From Shigella phage Sf22: a DNA stretch of 64,000 bases. Within the stretch, counting starts at the first letter, position 1. Every line of letters starts with the position of its first letter. The position numbers and the translations under genes are program-made. Shown piece by piece: positions 26,800 through 34,043 of the stretch. Location: sequence record MF158045, one strand, 5' to 3'. The notes below the pieces were generated by a model. It was not told the origin of the DNA, ran no database searches, and was given only the letters and a program-made list of their open reading frames with translations.

Positions 26800-27107
26800 C
26801 GGAAAGTCCCTGCAATTGGAATACTAACAATACGCCCAGTATCTAGAATTCGTTGATATAATCTTTGTGTATCTACATCAGGCTTAACATGTTTAACTTC
26901 TATTTTATTAAACCAAAACTTGCGTGGAGTCTCAACTAATCTTGGAATTCCTTTACCTAAAGCTAATCGATACTGCTCTTTAAGAGTAGTAAATACTTTA
27001 TCAGCAATATTCCATTCAAAAAATACAGCAGGACGATGTTCATCAAGCGGAACTGGCGCCGTAAATCCGTCTTTGTCTCGGTAAACTATCGCATATACAT
27101 AAACCAT
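26796..27107 (-). CDS. Hypothetical protein (103 aa), dda.1-like by position
   Basis: ORF track; overlaps dda start. Confidence 0.5.
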   Translation of the reverse strand: MVYVYAIVYRDKDGFTAPVPLDEHRPAVFFEWNIADKVFTTLKEQYRLALGKGIPRLVETPRKFWFNKIEVKHVKPDVDTQRLYQRILDTGRIVSIPIAGTFR

Positions 27108-27108
27108 A

Positions 27109-27855
27109 TTATCCTCGGATAAGTTTAAAAATTGAACAATTCAGCGGATATCCTCTTTTCAGTTTAAGTTTATCAATAAAAGACAAGTTTTGATACCGCT
27201 CTACACCTTGAATAATTTTATCACACATATCATATTGCATTTCTGCTTCTGACAACTTTTTCACAGTTTTCCAATCCGAGCCTTTAAGAAGAACGTTCAG
27301 TTTAACAACTTCAGCGCCTTCTGCTATGCGAGAACCATCAATACGAGCTTTAAGTGCTATAATTCTTAGCTTAATGTCAGAGGTCTGTTTTGATTTAGAA
27401 AGCTGAGAAATGTGTTCAATTCGGTTTTCACGTTTTTTCTGTATAGCTTTAATTTGATTATAAGTCTTTTTGATTTTAGCCCATTTCTTTTCATCTAAAT
27501 TTAGTTTATGAACTTTTTTCGCAGATGAACGACCAATTCGCAAAGCAAATAAATCACGCTTTTCAATCAACTCTTCTAAAGTATAATCAGAACGAAATGT
27601 ATTATACTTTTTCTTTACTGCAATAACATTCCCTTTAATGTATCCAACGTTATTATCAAAACGTTCTAATGATAATTTCTCTCCTTCAATACGATTATCA
27701 AAAGGTTCTCCCGAGTAAGCGCAAACTTTCTGATCTAAAATGTTCTTAATGTAATTGAAGTCTAAGTTAAAATCTTTAGAACGTCTTTTTGCAGATGCCT
27801 GAGTATGCTCTAAACGACGTTTAATTTTACGAATTTGATTATTAGACAGTTTCAT
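27109..27855 (-). CDS. srd: Srd-position protein (248 aa), lysine-rich, with degenerate HNH/EndoVII-like motif
   Basis: Position between dda and modA as for T4 srd; segment CAYSGEPF...LSLERFDNNVGYIKGNVIAVKKKYNTFRSD resembles an HNH core lacking the Cys ligands. Confidence 0.45.
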   Translation of the reverse strand: MKLSNNQIRKIKRRLEHTQASAKRRSKDFNLDFNYIKNILDQKVCAYSGEPFDNRIEGEKLSLERFDNNVGYIKGNVIAVKKKYNTFRSDYTLEELIEKRDLFALRIGRSSAKKVHKLNLDEKKWAKIKKTYNQIKAIQKKRENRIEHISQLSKSKQTSDIKLRIIALKARIDGSRIAEGAEVVKLNVLLKGSDWKTVKKLSEAEMQYDMCDKIIQGVERYQNLSFIDKLKLKRGYPLNCSIFKLIRG

Positions 27856-27890
27856 ATTTTTCTCACATCTTACGGACGATTGACTACTAT

Positions 27891-27920
27891 ACTATAACAT
27901 TTTTACTTTAACTTGTAAAC
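27891..27920 (-). promoter_or_regulatory. T4-type early promoter upstream of srd-position ORF
   Basis: Minus strand GTTTAC, 18 nt, TATAGT. Confidence 0.55.
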
Positions 27921-27933
27921 AACTTTATGTAAA

Positions 27934-27960
27934 AATGCTTTAAAAATTTCATGGTATAAT
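27934..27960 (+). promoter_or_regulatory. Plus-strand MotA-box plus extended -10 promoter-like element, antisense to modA
   Basis: Plus strand AATGCTTTA (MotA box), 12 nt, TGgTATAAT. Confidence 0.4.
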
Positions 27961-27977
27961 GAATCTAAGTCCTTCCA

Positions 27978-28580
27978 TTATAGATTAAATCCTTCAAAAT
28001 CAAGAGTATAGATAGTGTATGTTGAATACTTTTTGTACTCATATCTATCTGCAATTTTAAATACACTTCCAGCTGGTATCATTACTTCTTGTTCATCTGA
28101 AACTAATTCCATATTACGATAACGATGGCTATCCGGAAACTTAAAGTTTGGATTGTATTCTTTACAGCGTAGAGCTTTTATAGCATACTCCTGGAAATTG
28201 AATACCATAGGAGCTTTGAATTCAAAAATAACTTGTGTGTTATACTCTAAACCGGAAGCAAAATGTAGAGCTATATTTTTATCATATGAAGCTGATACTA
28301 CTTTATCAAATGTAATAATATCAATTCCTTGATTTAATATTTGTTTAGTCTCAACTGGAACACCTCTCCAAAGAGGTTTATCGTTTGGAACCAAACGAGA
28401 TTTGATTATTTCATTTAACCAAGTATGGTCATCTGGCTTATTAGTAATACAATGAATTAAAAGTTCAATTTCAGATAAATTAAACCCTTCAGAAAGTAAT
28501 TCTTCACGAATAGAAGCACGCACCGATGCATCCATTGATTTTATTTTAAAATCTTTTAGTTGCATTACTGAGTATTTCAT
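27978..28580 (-). CDS. modA: ADP-ribosyltransferase ModA
   Basis: 200 aa (T4 ModA 200 aa); ART-like R...S...E-x-E pattern (LWRG, QEVMIPAG). Confidence 0.8.
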   Translation of the reverse strand: MKYSVMQLKDFKIKSMDASVRASIREELLSEGFNLSEIELLIHCITNKPDDHTWLNEIIKSRLVPNDKPLWRGVPVETKQILNQGIDIITFDKVVSASYDKNIALHFASGLEYNTQVIFEFKAPMVFNFQEYAIKALRCKEYNPNFKFPDSHRYRNMELVSDEQEVMIPAGSVFKIADRYEYKKYSTYTIYTLDFEGFNL

Positions 28581-29200
28581 TCAACTACCTCAATATCATA
28601 AACTTTAAATGTTCCAAATGAATCGTGTAATTTTTCTTTTGAAATAGAAGTTATTTTATACTTTCCAATTGGAATCATCCATTCTTGTTCATGTACAATC
28701 ATCATTAAGTTATCAGTACGCTCTGAATCTAATCCATCAGTATCTTCATACGTGTACTTAAACTCAGTATTAGGAGAAGAAAGTATAATATCGCTGATAT
28801 GGTCAGAGTAATTAAAAGCTTTATCAGTTTTTAAACGAAGTATTGTTTCAGTGAAATATTCAGCATAAGAAAAAGAACACGCTGTATGCAAACTAGTAGT
28901 AAATGAATCTACCCTGTTCGTTGAAAACACTTCTCCAACTTGTAAATCTTTAATAAGTTCTTTTGTCGATTTTGATATACCACGATATAACTGATAAGGC
29001 GATTTAGTTAAATGCTTTTTAATGATTTTATTCAATTGCCGATGAAGAGCTTCATTCTTTTTAGCTTCCATACATTGCCAAAGAACAGACTGCTCAAAAT
29101 CAGTAAATTTTTCACAGACCTTTTTATACATATCATATTGAAAATCAACGCTTTCAGCTTTTATAGATAACTGTTCAACATCTGCAAGATTAATAATCAT
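28577..29200 (-). CDS. modB: ADP-ribosyltransferase ModB
   Basis: 207 aa (T4 ModB 207 aa); paralog of modA (LYRGIS, QEWMIPIG); early promoter upstream. Confidence 0.8.
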   Translation of the reverse strand: MIINLADVEQLSIKAESVDFQYDMYKKVCEKFTDFEQSVLWQCMEAKKNEALHRQLNKIIKKHLTKSPYQLYRGISKSTKELIKDLQVGEVFSTNRVDSFTTSLHTACSFSYAEYFTETILRLKTDKAFNYSDHISDIILSSPNTEFKYTYEDTDGLDSERTDNLMMIVHEQEWMIPIGKYKITSISKEKLHDSFGTFKVYDIEVVE

Positions 29201-29226
29201 GATAGCCTCCGTATACTTCAGAAGCT

Positions 29227-29256
29227 ATCATATCATCGTTAGAAAGGAAAGTAAAC
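29227..29256 (-). promoter_or_regulatory. T4-type early promoter upstream of modB
   Basis: Minus strand GTTTAC, 18 nt, TATGAT. Confidence 0.6.
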
Positions 29257-29267
29257 AACTTTTTGAA

Positions 29268-29450
29268 TTATTTTGCCCAGGGAGCCCAGGGCGGAGGGTC
29301 AAGATGGTATGAAGCTAGTTCTTCTAGAAGAGCATCTGGGGCTTCAATTCCATAATTCTGTAATACTATACGGTACTCTTTCTTATAATCACTAGAATCA
29401 TTCTGGATATTCGTAGAATGATTATCTTCTAACATCTCAAATAAATCCAT
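29268..29450 (-). CDS. Hypothetical protein (60 aa)
   Basis: ORF track. Confidence 0.45.
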   Translation of the reverse strand: MDLFEMLEDNHSTNIQNDSSDYKKEYRIVLQNYGIEAPDALLEELASYHLDPPPWAPWAK

Positions 29451-29458
29451 ATTAATTC

Positions 29459-29929
29459 CTAGCGATAAAAACCAAAGTGACGATTAGCTTCAACAATCTT
29501 TCTTTCTTCTTCAGACATTCTCCAGCGTAGTCCAACATCAAAATGAGCCCAGACCATCTTAACAAATGCGTTTATATCTTTAATATCTTCAATAATGAAT
29601 GTTTTACTTTTAGAAGGTTGACTCGCTAATTTAACTTTATCGTCTTCAAACATGTCAAAAAGACCATATTCATGAGCTCTTTTATAGCCTTTAATAGTTA
29701 AAGCTTCAGAAGAAGAAAATGGTGAATCTGTATTCTGCAAAATATCTTCAGTATGCTTTATAATTAGAATAACATTTTCTGGATATTTTCTTTCTTTTAT
29801 ATCTTTAATTAAAATATCCGGATTTTCTGCTAAAGGAATAATTAACGAGCATTTTTTATCAAGTGTATTTACTGATTTACCTTCTTTAGACATAAATTCT
29901 ATTGAATATAATTTTGCTACTTCAATCAT
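29459..29929 (-). CDS. Hypothetical protein (156 aa)
   Basis: ORF track. Confidence 0.5.
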
Positions 29930-30082
29930 GTGATTTCCTTTTGCCTACTAATGGACCGTCAGGAATTTTGTTTTCCTGAATGTATTTCTCATTTTCTTCC
30001 ATCATTTTACTACCGATTTTAAGAAGCAAATCTAAGGCTTCATTTGCTTTAGCTTTAGCCTCTTCTAACGTCATGTTCTTGT

Positions 30083-30286
30083 TCATGATTTATCCCCATA
30101 GATATCTCTCATCAATTTAAGTGCTGAGCGTTCTAATTTCTTTTCTTTCTCAGCACTAATCATTGATTTCATCCATTCTTCCGATTCGTTCTGCATTTCT
30201 TTATTTGCCTGTTCAACCCAACCATCGTCAATATACATTGAGTTTGGTCTACTGAACCATTCAAGCATCTTCTTCAGAACTTTCAT
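30083..30286 (-). CDS. Hypothetical protein (67 aa)
   Basis: ORF track. Confidence 0.45.
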
Positions 30287-30746
30287 TTGTTTTACCTAAA
30301 ACAATAGTAGGAGCATCGTCAAATTCATGAATTTTTAGCAATTTTGGATTTAAATTATTCCATACATAATAAATAAAGTATGATAAAGCATCTTCACTCG
30401 CAATTATAAATTTATTTCCTTCATTTATTTTCCAGTCATATACTGAATCGTACGAATAAAAAGATAAAGGATTACCATTATATTGTTCTGCGCTAACATT
30501 AATGTATTCGGATTTAGTAAATGCTTCAATTGCTCTAAACGGACTATTTGGCACAGTTTCAATAATTCCGATCTTTTTAAGTTTTATTTCAACATCTTCT
30601 GGAACTGGCATTGAAACGAAATTTTCTACGAGATACATAGGGTTACAATAACCCTTATCAATCACTACGGCTACAGTAATTGGAACATCTTTAGCAAACG
30701 ACATGCTATTACTGCTAATATACATTTCAAACAAAATCGCTTCCAT
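30261..30746 (-). CDS. Hypothetical protein (161 aa)
   Basis: ORF track. Confidence 0.5.
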
Positions 30747-30754
30747 AATTTTCC

Positions 30755-31249
30755 TCAGTCACAAGATGTAGATGAACAACCAGAATCACAAGAACTTCCA
30801 CATGAATCACCAGTCCAAGAACTAACAGCCGTGACTGTTATAATAGGAGCGGTATCGATATAGCTTTCTGAACGTCTTGAATCTAAATGTTCTTTTAACT
30901 TTTTAGAATTCAATGGAAGCGCACCTGCACCAACATTACCAGCTTTTTCTGGTTGACGAATAATTTCTTCCATCGTATCGTCGCTCGCATAAACATTAGT
31001 ATCATATGAATCAGAACTAGACTGTGTATTAGATGATGTAGTAGGTACTGACCAGCGCCAAGGATTTTTATAATATTCTTGGGCTTCTTCATAAGTCATA
31101 GTAACTGCTTCTACTGTTCCATCTCCCATATAAACATATTCAACTACAGTTAAAGGAAGATAGTCATTTGAAATAGGAACTACACCTTCTCCCGGAGTTG
31201 TAGAGAAAAAATCTGTAAAGAAATTTTTAAACCAATTAAAGATAAACAT
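30755..31249 (-). CDS. Hypothetical protein (164 aa) with Cys/Ser-rich C-terminal tail
   Basis: ORF track; C-terminus [17 protein letters not shown]. Confidence 0.5.
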
Positions 31250-31455
31250 TACAAAAAGCCTCTTTTGAATTCGACCTGCTTCTCACCATAATCATATCGA
31301 ATCTCTGCGTTAAATTCAACAGAACCATCTGCGTACATCATAAATGAATGCACAACAACTTCTGTAGACCATGGTTGCAATTCATATTTCTTCATTACAT
31401 GCCGTGAAATGATAATATCTAAATCTTCATTTGGTTTAATCCAACGATTTAACAT
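31249..31455 (-). CDS. Hypothetical protein (68 aa)
   Basis: ORF track; consensus early promoter and UUCG hairpin upstream. Confidence 0.5.
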   Translation of the reverse strand: MLNRWIKPNEDLDIIISRHVMKKYELQPWSTEVVVHSFMMYADGSVEFNAEIRYDYGEKQVEFKRGFL

Positions 31456-31481
31456 AGTGCTCTCCTCTATAAGATAATTCT

Positions 31482-31511
31482 ATTATACCATACTCATTTT
31501 GATATGTAAAC
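31482..31511 (-). promoter_or_regulatory. T4-type early promoter upstream of ORF 31249-31455
   Basis: Minus strand GTTTAC, 18 nt, TGgTATAAT. Confidence 0.7.
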
Positions 31512-31520
31512 CATTTAAAT

Positions 31521-31545
31521 GAAAAAGGACTCCCGAAGGAGTCCT
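31521..31545 (-). terminator. UUCG-loop hairpin downstream of soc
   Basis: Minus strand GGACUCC-UUCG-GGAGUCC then U-rich tail; followed by an early promoter. Confidence 0.55.
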
Positions 31546-31553
31546 TAAATTAT

Positions 31554-31811
31554 TTAACCACCTACACCTGGTGTAGGTGTAACAGTCCAAAGACCTTCAT
31601 TAGCAGTGATCCATTCAGTACGCTGATTTTCTTCATATACTGTAGAATATGCTGCTTTTTCAGAAGGGAATGTCTGATAATGAGCACCAGAAATTTTGTG
31701 AACATCAGAATAAAGAGGGAAAGCTACAGAAATTTCTTTACCCTGAATTGTACCACCATCAACTGCTTGGTCAAATGTTTTGATATTAACATAACCGCGA
31801 GTACTAGCCAT
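31554..31811 (-). CDS. soc: Small outer capsid protein Soc
   Basis: 85 aa, MASTRGYVNIKTF...KEISVAFPLYSDVHKISGAHYQTFPSEKAAYSTVYEENQRTEW matches T4 Soc as recalled; late promoter TATAAATA upstream. Confidence 0.9.
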   Translation of the reverse strand: MASTRGYVNIKTFDQAVDGGTIQGKEISVAFPLYSDVHKISGAHYQTFPSEKAAYSTVYEENQRTEWITANEGLWTVTPTPGVGG

Positions 31812-31827
31812 GTAATTCTCCTTTTAT

Positions 31828-32037
31828 TTAAATTACATGATTATTTATAATAAATTCTCGCGGAACGTTAAAATACCCGATTTTAGTTAATATAACAACA
31901 TCACCGTTAATAATTACCGGAGAATAATCTTCTGGAGCATTAAATTTCCAATGGGCTCTAATATTATATCCATCAGAACCAAATGCTCGAGTAGCCGGTC
32001 TCCCGGCTTTTTGCCACGCGTAGAAATCAAATTTCAT
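31828..32037 (-). CDS. Hypothetical protein (69 aa)
   Basis: ORF track. Confidence 0.45.
   Translation of the reverse strand: MKFDFYAWQKAGRPATRAFGSDGYNIRAHWKFNAPEDYSPVIINGDVVILTKIGYFNVPREFIINNHVI
31842..31849 (-). promoter_or_regulatory. T4-type late promoter (TATAAATA) for soc
   Basis: Exact TATAAATA on minus strand about 30 nt upstream of the soc ATG. Confidence 0.7.
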
Positions 32038-32228
32038 TTTGAATGCTCTATAATTAATTTTAAAGCTTCTTCACTGACAAAAATTTCGTCAGGACCTTCT
32101 ATAACTTCAACCATACGAAGTTGATTAGTTAAGAGCTCACATACGAGCTCCTTGTTATAATCTTTAAATAGCTGGTCAATACGTTTCTTGTGGGCTTTCT
32201 TAAGCTGGCGTTTATTTAAACGAGCCAT
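32034..32228 (-). CDS. Hypothetical protein (64 aa)
   Basis: ORF track; stop/start overlaps on both sides. Confidence 0.45.
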   Translation of the reverse strand: MARLNKRQLKKAHKKRIDQLFKDYNKELVCELLTNQLRMVEVIEGPDEIFVSEEALKLIIEHSK

Positions 32229-32746
32229 TAATAACCTCGGTCTTGACGAGCGAAGTTTTCAGCATTTTTCAGATAATAAAGTTTAAAGATTTCTTCAGCC
32301 GTAAGACCGAGACCTTGGAACATGTTCAGAACGAAATGAAGAATATCAATCATTTCGAATTTAATTTCCAACTGGTCTTGTGGAGACAAATCAGTAATTA
32401 AAGTTTCACGACGTTCACCATGTTGAGCTTTCCAAGGCTTCCATACAGCAGATGCATCTTTTTCGCCATTGCTCATACCACCAAGAGAAGTCAATAGTTC
32501 GCGGAATTCATCATCAATATAATCTTTCTGATTACGCAGCCAATCAACAACTTCACCCGCAGTAGCCAAATCATCAGGATGACGGTTATATTCAGGTTTA
32601 TCTTTAGCTAAACGAACCTGAAGAGATTTCTGCATATCAAGCATAACTTGCAGCGGGTCTTTTTCATCACCGAGAATATCCCAGTATTCATTTTGAGCTT
32701 TATCAGCGCCTTCAATCAGTTGTGAACATTCATTAAAGTATGCCAT
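32228..32746 (-). CDS. 56: dCTP pyrophosphatase gp56 (MazG-like)
   Basis: Internal start MAYFNECSQLIEG gives 172 aa (T4 gp56 171 aa); the ORF-track 5-prime extension is unlikely. Confidence 0.8.
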   Translation of the reverse strand: MAYFNECSQLIEGADKAQNEYWDILGDEKDPLQVMLDMQKSLQVRLAKDKPEYNRHPDDLATAGEVVDWLRNQKDYIDDEFRELLTSLGGMSNGEKDASAVWKPWKAQHGERRETLITDLSPQDQLEIKFEMIDILHFVLNMFQGLGLTAEEIFKLYYLKNAENFARQDRGY

Positions 32747-32817
32747 TATTTTTCCTTTCAATTCATGGGTTAGTAGATTAATTATACAATAAATATATAA
32801 AGCAATAAGGAGGACAT

Positions 32818-33018
32818 ATGGTACAAAAATTAATGGCACTTGTTAATGCCATAAAAGGTAATAAAAAACGTATAGCTTTTACTATTTCTGCTATGGTAGG
32901 AATTTTACTCTGGAACTTTATTCTATCACCTGTTGCAATTGCGCATGGTATTAATATTCCAGTAGTTACTCTTGATACATTTGTAGATTTAGCATTTGCT
33001 TTAGTTGGGTTGATTTAA
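32818..33018 (+). CDS. Small membrane protein (66 aa) on plus strand
   Basis: Strong SD AAGGAGG 6 nt before ATG; two predicted hydrophobic helices; only plus-strand ORF with a good RBS in the early region. Confidence 0.5.
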   Translation: MVQKLMALVNAIKGNKKRIAFTISAMVGILLWNFILSPVAIAHGINIPVVTLDTFVDLAFALVGLI

Positions 33019-34043
33019 ATCTTAGCATATTTAGATAGCCGCATTTTAGCCATCAACCCTTGGGCAATATTATTTTTCATATATTCCATAATTTGTTTAG
33101 GGGTTGCACCTTCCTTTCTAATCATATCATTGACATCTTTTGATTTCCAGGGAGATTTATCCCAAAACATAACCCTTTCTCCTGCATCAACTAATTTAGT
33201 CATTCGCTTAATAGTGTCAGGATGACGAGGTTCATTATCTAAAACCCACACACGTCTATCTTTAAATGGAACAACTTCTAGGTCTAATTGACCACCCGTA
33301 ATAGCTATACCATTTTCAATAAAAAGTGAATCTATAGGTCCTTCTAGAACATATACATCACCATCTTTAACTCGTTCGACTCCATAGATTTTTGTTGCTT
33401 CAGGATAAGCTTTGATGGTGATATATTTTTGAGGAGCATCTTTCTTTAATGCACGTCCTTGAAAAGACTCAGCTTTTCCATTAGCATTATAAATTGGAAT
33501 AACAAGACGAGGCTCAGAAATTTCCTTTTTGTATGTTCCTGGTGCTATGCTATTAACTAATTTAGGCCATTCGGTTGTAAACCAAAGATATTTCCATTTA
33601 TCCTTTGGAATACAACGAGCTTTTACATATTTTATAATTGCATGGTCTTCCGCCAGTTTATCTAATCGAACACATGACGGAAGAGATTTAATTATTTTCT
33701 TCTCAGGTTGTTTAGGAAGTTCTTTAGGTTTTTCTACTGGACGACTTTTACCTTTTTCTTTTCTTATTTCAAAGATATACTCACGATATAAATCAGGTTC
33801 AAACTCCTTTAAATATATTCCGATTGGTGCATGATAGTTACAGTTATAACAATGAATATTTCCTTCATTATTATCACCATAATACCATCCACGAGCTTTA
33901 TTCTGGTCGGTTTTTGAATCTCCACAAACAGGACATCTAAACCGTAATTTAAAAGTTGAACTATTATTTACTTGTGTGAATTTAGGTAAATGAGCTAATG
34001 CACGGTATGCAAACTCATTATCAATCCAAGGTATTGATGACAT
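33015..34043 (-). CDS. 61: DNA primase gp61
   Basis: 342 aa (T4 gp61 342 aa); N-terminal zinc ribbon CPVCGDS...CYNCNYH. Confidence 0.9.
   Translation of the reverse strand: MSSIPWIDNEFAYRALAHLPKFTQVNNSSTFKLRFRCPVCGDSKTDQNKARGWYYGDNNEGNIHCYNCNYHAPIGIYLKEFEPDLYREYIFEIRKEKGKSRPVEKPKELPKQPEKKIIKSLPSCVRLDKLAEDHAIIKYVKARCIPKDKWKYLWFTTEWPKLVNSIAPGTYKKEISEPRLVIPIYNANGKAESFQGRALKKDAPQKYITIKAYPEATKIYGVERVKDGDVYVLEGPIDSLFIENGIAITGGQLDLEVVPFKDRRVWVLDNEPRHPDTIKRMTKLVDAGERVMFWDKSPWKSKDVNDMIRKEGATPKQIMEYMKNNIAQGLMAKMRLSKYAKI

Follow-up and report, generated by a model that had tools for sequence, protein, structure and literature searches.

The region located between modB and soc in Shigella phage Sf22 (MF158045) very probably represents a set of T4-type early genes of Tequatrovirus, mrh.2–mrh.1–mrh–srh–modA.4–modA.3–modA.2, with a proposed role in host takeover. 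The window, i.e., the whole stretch of 64,000 nucleotides that was analyzed, carries this block at positions 29268–31455 on the minus strand, on which all features described below are also located. Sequence comparison showed that all seven open reading frames (ORFs) are orthologues of named T4 genes, with the T4 order kept. The genes of the block have already been catalogued in T4 and are not surprising as a discovery.

Gene content and distribution of the block

The six minus-strand ORFs of 60, 156, 67, 161, 164 and 68 aa listed in an earlier note on this DNA were all recovered at the same positions. A seventh gene, modA.4 (29922–30086, 54 aa), had been overlooked. In that note, the ORFs were regarded as unrecognised and free of recognisable motifs. 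However, Pfam assigns two of them to T4_MRH (E 3.5e-38 and 5e-42) and one to DUF7206 (E 2.4e-34), and each of the seven falls into a PHROG family, among them ‘Mrh transcription modulator’ and ‘decoy of host sigma32’; the ORFs have names in T4 and belong to curated families. What is left of the original description is that five of the seven genes have no defined function, although every ORF can be assigned to a T4 protein.

The order, strand, overlaps and flanking genes (modB and soc) of the corresponding T4 genes (NC_000866, T4p022–T4p028) are as in the window. Gene order and strand between modB and soc are also the same in Shigella phage KRT47, as indicated by the annotation and, for T4, by a collinear BLAST alignment. 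Genes within the block overlap by 1, 26, 4 and 8 nt, and the rest is tightly packed. For six of the seven genes, the T4 proteins share 79–99% identity with those of the window, with only 79% for Mrh; the exception is mrh.1. Purifying selection acts on the six genes that were compared with T4 in this respect, with dN/dS ratios of 0.02–0.48; mrh.1 was left out because its length differs from that in T4. The adjacent locus has been swapped, with segF in T4 and soc.1/soc.2-like ORFs in the window.

The distribution was determined with a 2.8-kb query (29100–31900 of the window, flanks included). Its closest DNA match is KRT47, with 97.3% identity over the full query. In KRT47, Shigella phage Sf24 and Yersinia phage fPS-90, all belonging to Tequatrovirus, the whole block is found in a single aligned piece at 96–97% DNA identity, differing by point changes only. 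The presence/absence comparison proposed in the earlier note did not reveal an island: at least 80% of the query is covered in 493 of the 544 matching phage records, the block being whole and collinear in nearly all of them. For modA.2, mrh.1 and mrh.2 alike, about 500 records contain a close copy, and more distant homologues are found in other T4-like phages. Since about 500 sequenced T4 relatives contain it, the block is ordinary. Its G+C content (0.28–0.375) is the same as that of the flanks.

In view of these data, a reading of the block as an accessory island exchanged horizontally, such as a cassette for anti-defence or host range gained and lost among related phages, is very unlikely. 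Such an exchange would be in agreement with the internal structure of the block, which, judged from its alignment with T4, is mosaic. The T4 copies of modA.4, srh and mrh show a high synonymous divergence from those of the window (dS of 0.33–0.51), in contrast to srd, modA, modB, modA.2 and modA.3 (0.03–0.07), and nucleotide identity to T4 drops to 77–87% across 30369–30768. In addition to this divergent segment of three genes, mrh.1 contains 180 bp that are rarely found in the genus, with ≥99% identity in only seven phage records. The exchanged neighbouring locus would also fit, and so would the view of the earlier note that these are accessory early genes, which is upheld by published work: the region has been called dispensable under laboratory conditions (PMC6070864), and T4 remains viable with mrh.2 deletions that reach 526 bp (PMC8262927). 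Of the proposed horizontal exchange, the mosaicism inside the block can thus be retained, but not the patchy presence and atypical composition expected of an island. PADLOC gave no match above threshold for the block (one 12-bit chance hit), and NCBIfam gave sub-threshold matches only. No anti-defence role has been assigned to the block genes in the literature searched, where modA.2, modA.3, modA.4, mrh.1, mrh.2 and their UniProt-style Y01x names returned only irrelevant papers; the block genes are also absent from the main text of the CRISPRi-ART and HIDEN-SEQ papers.

Mrh.1 and its C-terminal tail

The mrh.1 gene (30755–31249) encodes a long form of 164 aa. Its product scores 118.6 bits with PF23836 (DUF7206), for which the cut-off is 25.6; the match is split in two by an inserted segment. 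T4 Mrh.1, with 113 aa, is shorter because T4 lacks this middle segment (30812–30991), which is visible as a gap in the BLAST comparison with T4 and in the protein alignment. In this 167-column alignment, 103 positions are identical; the shared parts match, and the mismatch corresponds to the extra segment. The segment encodes the common middle part of the Mrh.1 family, including an IDTxPI motif, and is 70–81% identical in the mrh.1 genes of IME08/JS98-type phages. It is present at 100% identity in Sf24, and the mrh.1 homologue of KRT47, annotated with a length of 494 bp, is also the long form.

The protein ends in a Ser/Asp/Cys-rich tail (residues 145–164, encoded by 30758–30817), defined by its sequence and by the family alignment. 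The Cys/Ser-rich end described in the earlier note is thus confirmed: the only cysteines of Mrh.1 are found at positions 150, 154, 158 and 163, with a C-x3-C-x3-C-x4-C spacing. Residues W145, G147, D148, S149, S156, S159, S162, C163 and D164 are invariant in the family. In other genera, the tail reads DSSYSSYDSGSCDSSSSSCD and contains two cysteines, leaving C163 as the sole invariant one.

The same note had suggested metal binding or lipidation of this tail, which would make Mrh.1 a Cys4 zinc or Fe–S protein, or a lipid-anchored one. The regular spacing of the four cysteines, the presence of the same tail in T4 Mrh.1 and the invariant final -SCD would be compatible with this suggestion. A Cys4 site would, however, require that all four cysteines be conserved across the family, and other genera have only two. 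Bacterial lipidation requires an N-terminal signal peptide with a lipobox cysteine, and Mrh.1 has no such lipobox, its cysteines all lying within the last 15 residues. The best 19-aa hydropathy window scores 0.84, and none is of transmembrane grade. The tail, a Ser/Asp stretch of low complexity, is modelled as disordered, with a pLDDT below 50. Both variants are, therefore, highly improbable.

The AF2 model of the complete protein has a mean pLDDT of 49.9, too poor for a fold search; only a helix (3–14), a hairpin (34–52) and a second helix (53–61) are modelled. With a net charge of −13, Mrh.1 is predicted to be acidic and mostly disordered. A sequence search of the PDB with its profile gave no relative.

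There is a negligible probability that the tail forms the core of a lanthipeptide-like peptide, made by ribosomes and modified after translation: residues 144–160, in a tail rich in Ser, Thr and Cys, weakly match NCBIfam TIGR04363, ‘FxLD family lanthipeptide’ (E 0.016), but the 15.2 bits are half of the curated cut-off (30 bits) and are explained by composition, the number of cysteines is not conserved, and the gene annotation of the T4 and KRT47 stretches that were inspected includes no lanthipeptide synthetase-like gene. Both this reading and that of a lipoprotein were dropped, owing to the sub-threshold score and to the location of the cysteines only near the C-terminus, respectively.

Small proteins, Srh and the T4_MRH family

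Four genes of the block encode small proteins of 60, 54, 67 and 68 aa. ModA.2 (29268–29450, 60 aa) is identical to its T4 counterpart at 59 of 60 positions and belongs to phrog_1647 (E 2.4e-31); 991 phage records contain a homologue, some of them from Klebsiella and Enterobacter phages. Its dN/dS ratio of 0.24 compared to T4 says little because only two nucleotide positions differ. ModA.4 shares 52 of 54 residues with T4 ModA.4 and matches phrog_2681 (E 2.8e-37); the gene shares 4 nt with srh and 8 nt with modA.3, and has a dN/dS of 0.04 at a dS of 0.51 against T4. Mrh.2 (31249–31455, 68 aa; 67/68 identical to T4; phrog_1873, E 1.2e-36) has homologues in 741 phage records, and its gene shows a dN/dS of 0.04 against T4 at appreciable dS. 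ModA.2, ModA.4 and Mrh.2 have no relative in the PDB according to a sequence search.

In Pfam, nothing useful was found for the four small proteins at E ≤ 10, and their short length without a Pfam domain could indicate that some of these ORFs arose by chance and are not genes. As far as sequence evidence goes, this explanation is refuted and can be disregarded: each ORF matches a PHROG family, with E values from 1e-31 to 1e-41, dN/dS is 0.02–0.04 at appreciable dS for modA.4, srh and mrh.2, homologues at 36–68% identity are kept in other T4-like phages, and the overlapping start and stop codons of the block are typical of coupled genes.

The fourth small protein, Srh (30083–30286, 67 aa), is identical to T4 Srh at 66 of 67 positions (phrog_2441, E 1.2e-40). 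Its gene overlaps the 3′ end of mrh by 26 nt and has a dN/dS of 0.02 at a dS of 0.34 against T4. Srh is annotated as a decoy of sigma-32, a function postulated in annotation and reviews. Residues 23–60 align by BLASTP with residues 244–279 of E. coli RpoH (12/38 identities, E 7e-4), and none of 3000 shuffles reached the score of this alignment. The likeness is thus a local pairwise one to region 4.2 of sigma-32, and Srh, with only 67 aa, is without the other sigma regions. None of the Pfam models for sigma-70 region 4 is matched by Srh, even when hits with E ≤ 10 are admitted; hhalign gave a probability of 12% for the pair, on another patch (RpoH 213–224); and a sequence search of the PDB yielded no relative of Srh. 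At the sequence level, the similarity is a resemblance and not a family membership.

Mrh (30261–30746, 161 aa) and ModA.3 (29459–29929, 156 aa) both belong to Pfam T4_MRH (PF24070), with 143.6 and 131.1 bits, respectively, against a cut-off of 24.4, covering positions 1–143 of the 144 in the model. The two proteins are paralogues, sharing 25% identity within the window; 127 of 161 and 149 of 156 residues, respectively, are identical to those in T4. This family is very narrow, as a profile HMM of Mrh/ModA.3 found only 13 representative clusters among 1.84 billion representative proteins. The AF2 model of Mrh has a pLDDT of 84. The T4_MRH fold had no match among solved structures, and a sequence search with the Mrh profile found no relative in the PDB. 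In published work, Mrh modulates late transcription at high temperature and in rpoH mutants (PMC6070864, PMC8076793). It was purified as a very large complex (PMC8076793), and a cryo-EM structure of Mrh is referred to in that paper as ‘data not shown’. T4 genetics attributes to both mrh and srh an influence on late transcription at 42 °C, under heat shock and in rpoH (sigma-32) mutants (PMC6070864). The link of Mrh and Srh with sigma-32 comes from this old genetics and from a postulate, and is putative in biochemical terms.

Block boundaries and proposed role in host takeover

Just upstream of the block, the stop codon of soc is directly followed by a UUCG-tetraloop hairpin with a U run (31525–31546), an intrinsic-terminator-like boundary element. 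It has a dG of −15.7 kcal/mol (z −4.7), and none of 200 shuffled sequences folds as well. Between this hairpin and mrh.2, an early promoter-like site of the sigma-70 type with an extended −10 (TTTACA-17-TGGTATAAT, 31482–31510) was found, with 11 of 12 matches and the TG. At the downstream boundary, a weaker promoter-like site (TTTACT-17-TATGAT, with TG; 29227–29255) is located upstream of modB. Three T4 early promoters have been named Pe11.5, Pe12.8 and Pe15.0 (PMC6024815). Based on the spacing between sites, the one upstream of mrh.2 probably corresponds to Pe15.0 and the one upstream of modB to Pe12.8.

A strong hairpin with a 7-nt loop (29192–29237; dG −20.8 kcal/mol, z −6.8) is also present at this downstream end. 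Its 3′ arm contains the GGAGG and ATG of modB, i.e., the ribosome-binding site and start codon, and this hairpin may control the translation of modB. The earlier note had placed early promoters and UUCG hairpins at the boundaries of the block. Promoter-like sites are indeed found at both ends, but the UUCG hairpin after soc is the only one within 27000–32300. An Rfam search over 27000–33500 gave no match at E ≤ 1.

The sequence suggests that the block would be transcribed leftward immediately after infection by the host sigma-70 RNA polymerase, starting from the promoter at 31510–31482, and that transcription probably continues into modB and modA. Most likely, the products of the genes are small modulators of host takeover that target the transcription and heat-shock machinery of the host. 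Srh could act as a 67-aa helical peptide which, by resembling sigma-32 region 4.2, competes with sigma-32 for a partner such as the RNA polymerase core. Mrh might assemble into a large homo-oligomer with an effect on the sigma-32 pathway, and a related activity is probable for its paralogue ModA.3. Mrh.1 would combine a conserved N-terminal amphipathic helix and a β-hairpin with the conserved Ser/Asp-rich tail ending in -SCD. Its action is most likely exerted by binding to a host protein rather than through a Cys4 metal site or as a lipoprotein. For ModA.2, ModA.4, Mrh.1 and Mrh.2, the tie to transcription is their position in the gene block alone.

A more specific version, in which the block is a dedicated anti-heat-shock module, is considered unlikely. 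Srh would then mimic sigma-32 region 4, Mrh and ModA.3 would form megadalton assemblies that trap sigma-32 or its chaperones, and the invariant -SCD tail of Mrh.1, acidic and rich in Ser, would be a functional element, either redox-responsive or mimicking protein or DNA. If this were true, the rare long Mrh.1 would be an evolutionary intermediate between an ancestral 110-aa form and the 113-aa form of T4.

The occurrence of a long Mrh.1 and of a divergent stretch with modA.4, srh and mrh shows that alleles of these genes, putatively involved in host takeover, are exchanged among T-even phages. The value of the block is small as a discovery and lies in the pointers it may provide for the study of T4 proteins without an assigned function.

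Gene content between modB and soc

The DNA between modB and soc in phage Sf22 carries a known early block of phage T4, modA.2 to mrh.2. The earlier note had described an island of six unrecognised ORFs. A listing of ORFs over 27500–33500 agrees with those six, all on the minus strand: modA.2 (29268–29450, 60 aa), modA.3 (29459–29929, 156 aa), srh (30083–30286, 67 aa), mrh (30261–30746, 161 aa), mrh.1 (30755–31249, 164 aa) and mrh.2 (31249–31455, 68 aa). A seventh, modA.4 (29922–30086, 54 aa), located between the 156-aa and 67-aa ORFs, had been overlooked. No plus-strand ORF longer than 52 aa was listed in the block region, and its G+C content (0.28–0.375) does not differ from that of the flanks.

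In the T4 reference and in Shigella phage KRT47, the annotated order on the same strand is modB, modA.2, modA.3, modA.4, srh, mrh, mrh.1, mrh.2 and soc. Identity to the T4 proteins is 59/60 for ModA.2, 149/156 for ModA.3, 52/54 for ModA.4, 66/67 for Srh, 127/161 for Mrh and 67/68 for Mrh.2; Mrh.1 shares 103 identities over 167 alignment columns (164 aa against 113 aa in T4). Among the flanking proteins, Srd (27109–27855, minus strand, 248 aa, adjoining modA) is identical at 247/248 positions, ModA at 195/200 and ModB at 203/207, and Soc also adjoins. All seven proteins match PHROG families, with labels including “Mrh transcription modulator under heat shock” and “decoy of host sigma32”. Three match Pfam: ModA.3 and Mrh belong to PF24070 (T4_MRH; E-values of 3.5e-38 and 5.1e-42), and Mrh.1 to PF23836 (DUF7206; 2.4e-34). 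The description of these ORFs as unrecognised and without recognisable motifs is therefore wrong.

Two annotations deserve mention. Homologues of modA.2, modA.3 and modA.4 are labelled in GenBank as [quoted passage not shown] (e.g., SHBML-50-1, Aplg8, bov9_1 and mogra), which looks like an error that spread after the phage name was mistaken for that of E. coli modA. Database records call Srd an anti-sigma decoy; judging by a 2015 title of Qi et al., cited in PMC9697503, it reportedly stimulates RNase E instead.

Coding evidence came from dN/dS against T4 in every gene but mrh.1, which was omitted because its length differs. The values (dS in brackets) are 0.02 for srh (0.34), 0.04 for modA.4 (0.51), 0.04 for mrh.2 (0.17), 0.24 for modA.2 (0.03), 0.31 for mrh (0.41) and 0.48 for modA.3 (0.05). 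Starts and stops overlap by 1 nt (mrh.2/mrh.1), 26 nt (mrh/srh), 4 nt (srh/modA.4) and 8 nt (modA.4/modA.3), an arrangement typical of early genes that phages translate together.

Promoter-like sites and hairpins

After the soc stop codon, a UUCG-loop hairpin with a 9-bp stem is followed by a U run (31546–31525, minus strand; dG −15.7 kcal/mol, z −4.7). On its 3' side, upstream of mrh.2, lies a promoter-like site, TTTACA-17-TGGTATAAT (31510–31482, minus strand), matching at 11/12 positions, and the mrh.2 ribosome-binding site, GAGGAG, comes next. Downstream of modA.2, a weaker promoter-like site (29255–29227, minus strand) is found with a strong hairpin (29237–29192, minus strand; dG −20.8 kcal/mol, z −6.8). 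The loop of the latter has 7 nt and only one UUCG hairpin is present within 27000–32300; the claim of UUCG hairpins at both ends is not supported. A third promoter-like site lies upstream of srd (27919–27891). The three sites are ~2.2 and ~1.3 kb apart, and from this spacing they would correspond to Pe15.0, Pe12.8 and Pe11.5, early promoters of T4 as named in PMC6024815.

The 3' arm of the strong hairpin holds the GGAGG and ATG of modB, and there is overlap between its 5' arm and the −10 element (TATGAT) of the proximal early promoter-like site (29192–29255, minus strand); the choice of promoter could therefore set the exposure of the modB start. This start could be hidden in transcripts that read through from the mrh.2 promoter, and would be exposed in proximal-promoter transcripts, which would lack the 5' arm. 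T4 controls some other genes in this way, e and soc among them. Inside mrh (30366–30390, minus strand), a MotA-box-like TGCTTTA has TATTAT 12 nt downstream, a possible middle promoter for srh and the modA.x genes. A late-promoter motif, TATAAATA, is located upstream of soc (31849–31842).

Mrh.1, Mrh and Srh

A search of 5.8 billion proteins gave 28 clusters of the Mrh.1 family, which does not extend beyond T-even-type phages. Its consensus opens with an amphipathic helix at the N-terminus (MIxWLKNFFK, hydrophobic moment 0.8), continues with the motif PGEGVVPI, the β-hairpin EYVYMGDG…EV and a middle part, and closes with a Ser/Asp-rich tail that has an SCD end. Instead of the middle part, T4 Mrh.1 has a T4-group-specific insert (…SSSDSYDTN). 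The Sf22 protein holds both and so looks, from the alignment, like an intermediate between the two forms. The extra segment (30812–30991, 180 bp) is at least 99% identical in seven phage records only, and shows 70–81% identity to mrh.1 of IME08/JS98/JS10-type phages.

The Cys/Ser tail, for which metal binding or lipidation had been suggested, is the same in T4. Its four Cys are T4-group-specific, whereas other genera have DSSYSSYDSGSCDSSSSSCD, with two. C163 is the only invariant Cys, along with W145, G147, D148, S149, S156, S159, S162 and D164. All Cys fall within residues 150–163, and no transmembrane-grade hydrophobic window was found in the protein. A weak match of the tail to an FxLD lanthipeptide model, at 15.2 bits where the cut-off is 30, is compositional. 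There is thus no support for a conserved Cys4 metal site, for lipidation or for a modified-peptide core. Run on the family alignment, AlphaFold2 gave a mean pLDDT of 49.9, modelling only a helix (3–14), a hairpin (34–52) and a second helix (53–61), and the net charge is −13. What is conserved on this mostly disordered protein is a Ser-rich, acidic tail with -SCD at its end, which would fit a role in protein binding or mimicry.

Mrh and ModA.3 are paralogues (25% identical), and a profile run against 1.84 billion representative proteins gave only 13 relatives. AlphaFold2 models Mrh with confidence (pLDDT 84.3, pTM 0.76); among viral models, this one matches only enterobacterial-phage proteins at E <= 0.001, one of them named Mrh. 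Mrh is absent from the PDB. According to PMC8076793, the recombinant protein elutes in the form of a very large complex; the paper refers, as “data not shown”, to a cryo-EM structure at 3.3 Å. A passage in PMC6070864, citing work of 1998 and Frazier & Mosig 1990, attributes to mrh and srh an effect on late transcription under heat shock and in rpoH mutants and describes the region as dispensable, and a review table lists both proteins as sigma-32 decoys (PMC3594737). Deletions of 35–526 bp in mrh.2 are tolerated (PMC8262927).

Residues 23–60 of Srh align by BLASTP with E. coli RpoH 244–279, in region 4.2 (12/38 identities, E-value of 7e-4), a score reached by none of 3000 shuffles. Srh has no match among the Pfam models of sigma region 4, and hhalign pairs another patch, DDGWVEQA with DDNWEEQA at RpoH 213–224, at 12% probability. 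Every Srh homologue belongs to one narrow group of phages and has at least 66% identity to the query, which left no basis for a deeper profile. The resemblance to sigma-32 is real yet short, and is compatible with the decoy idea without being proof of it.

Mosaicism of the block

A 2.8-kb query that covers the block has matches in 544 phage records, nearly all of Escherichia, Shigella, Yersinia and Salmonella phages, with KRT47 (Tequatrovirus) as the top match at 97.3%. At least 80% of the query is covered in 493 of them. ModA.2 has homologues in 991 phage records (500 with >=95% identity and 491 with <60%, Klebsiella and Enterobacter phages among them), Mrh.2 in 741 and Mrh.1 in 569. The presence/absence comparison proposed in the earlier note thus speaks against an island; what stands of its horizontal exchange is allelic mosaicism inside the block.

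Neighbouring loci also differ from T4. In place of the homing endonuclease gene segF, Sf22 carries two small ORFs (31828–32228, minus strand; 69 and 64 aa), annotated in KRT47 as soc.1/soc.2-like, of T2 type, an exchanged locus. Soc (31554–31811, minus strand) has 85 aa, ending in …WTVTPTPGVGG, against 80 aa in T4, and also differs at residues ~14–24. Between gene 56 (32228–32746 from its ATG) and the gene 61 primase (33015–34043), where T4 has dam, there is no dam methyltransferase gene; the gap (32747–33018) holds only a plus-strand 66-aa ORF with hydrophobic stretches (32818–33018).

Within the block and beside it, nucleotide identity to T4 is 93–100% across most of 27070–30368 and 77–87% across 30369–30768. 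Likewise, modA.4, srh and mrh have a dS of 0.33–0.51, compared with 0.03–0.07 in modA.3, modA.2, modB, modA and srd, and Mrh identity ranges from 75 to 100% among phages that are otherwise very similar. This divergence marks 29970–30770 (modA.4–srh–mrh) as a patch that came by recombination from a T-even lineage at a greater distance; the block is no island by presence or absence, but a mosaic by allele.
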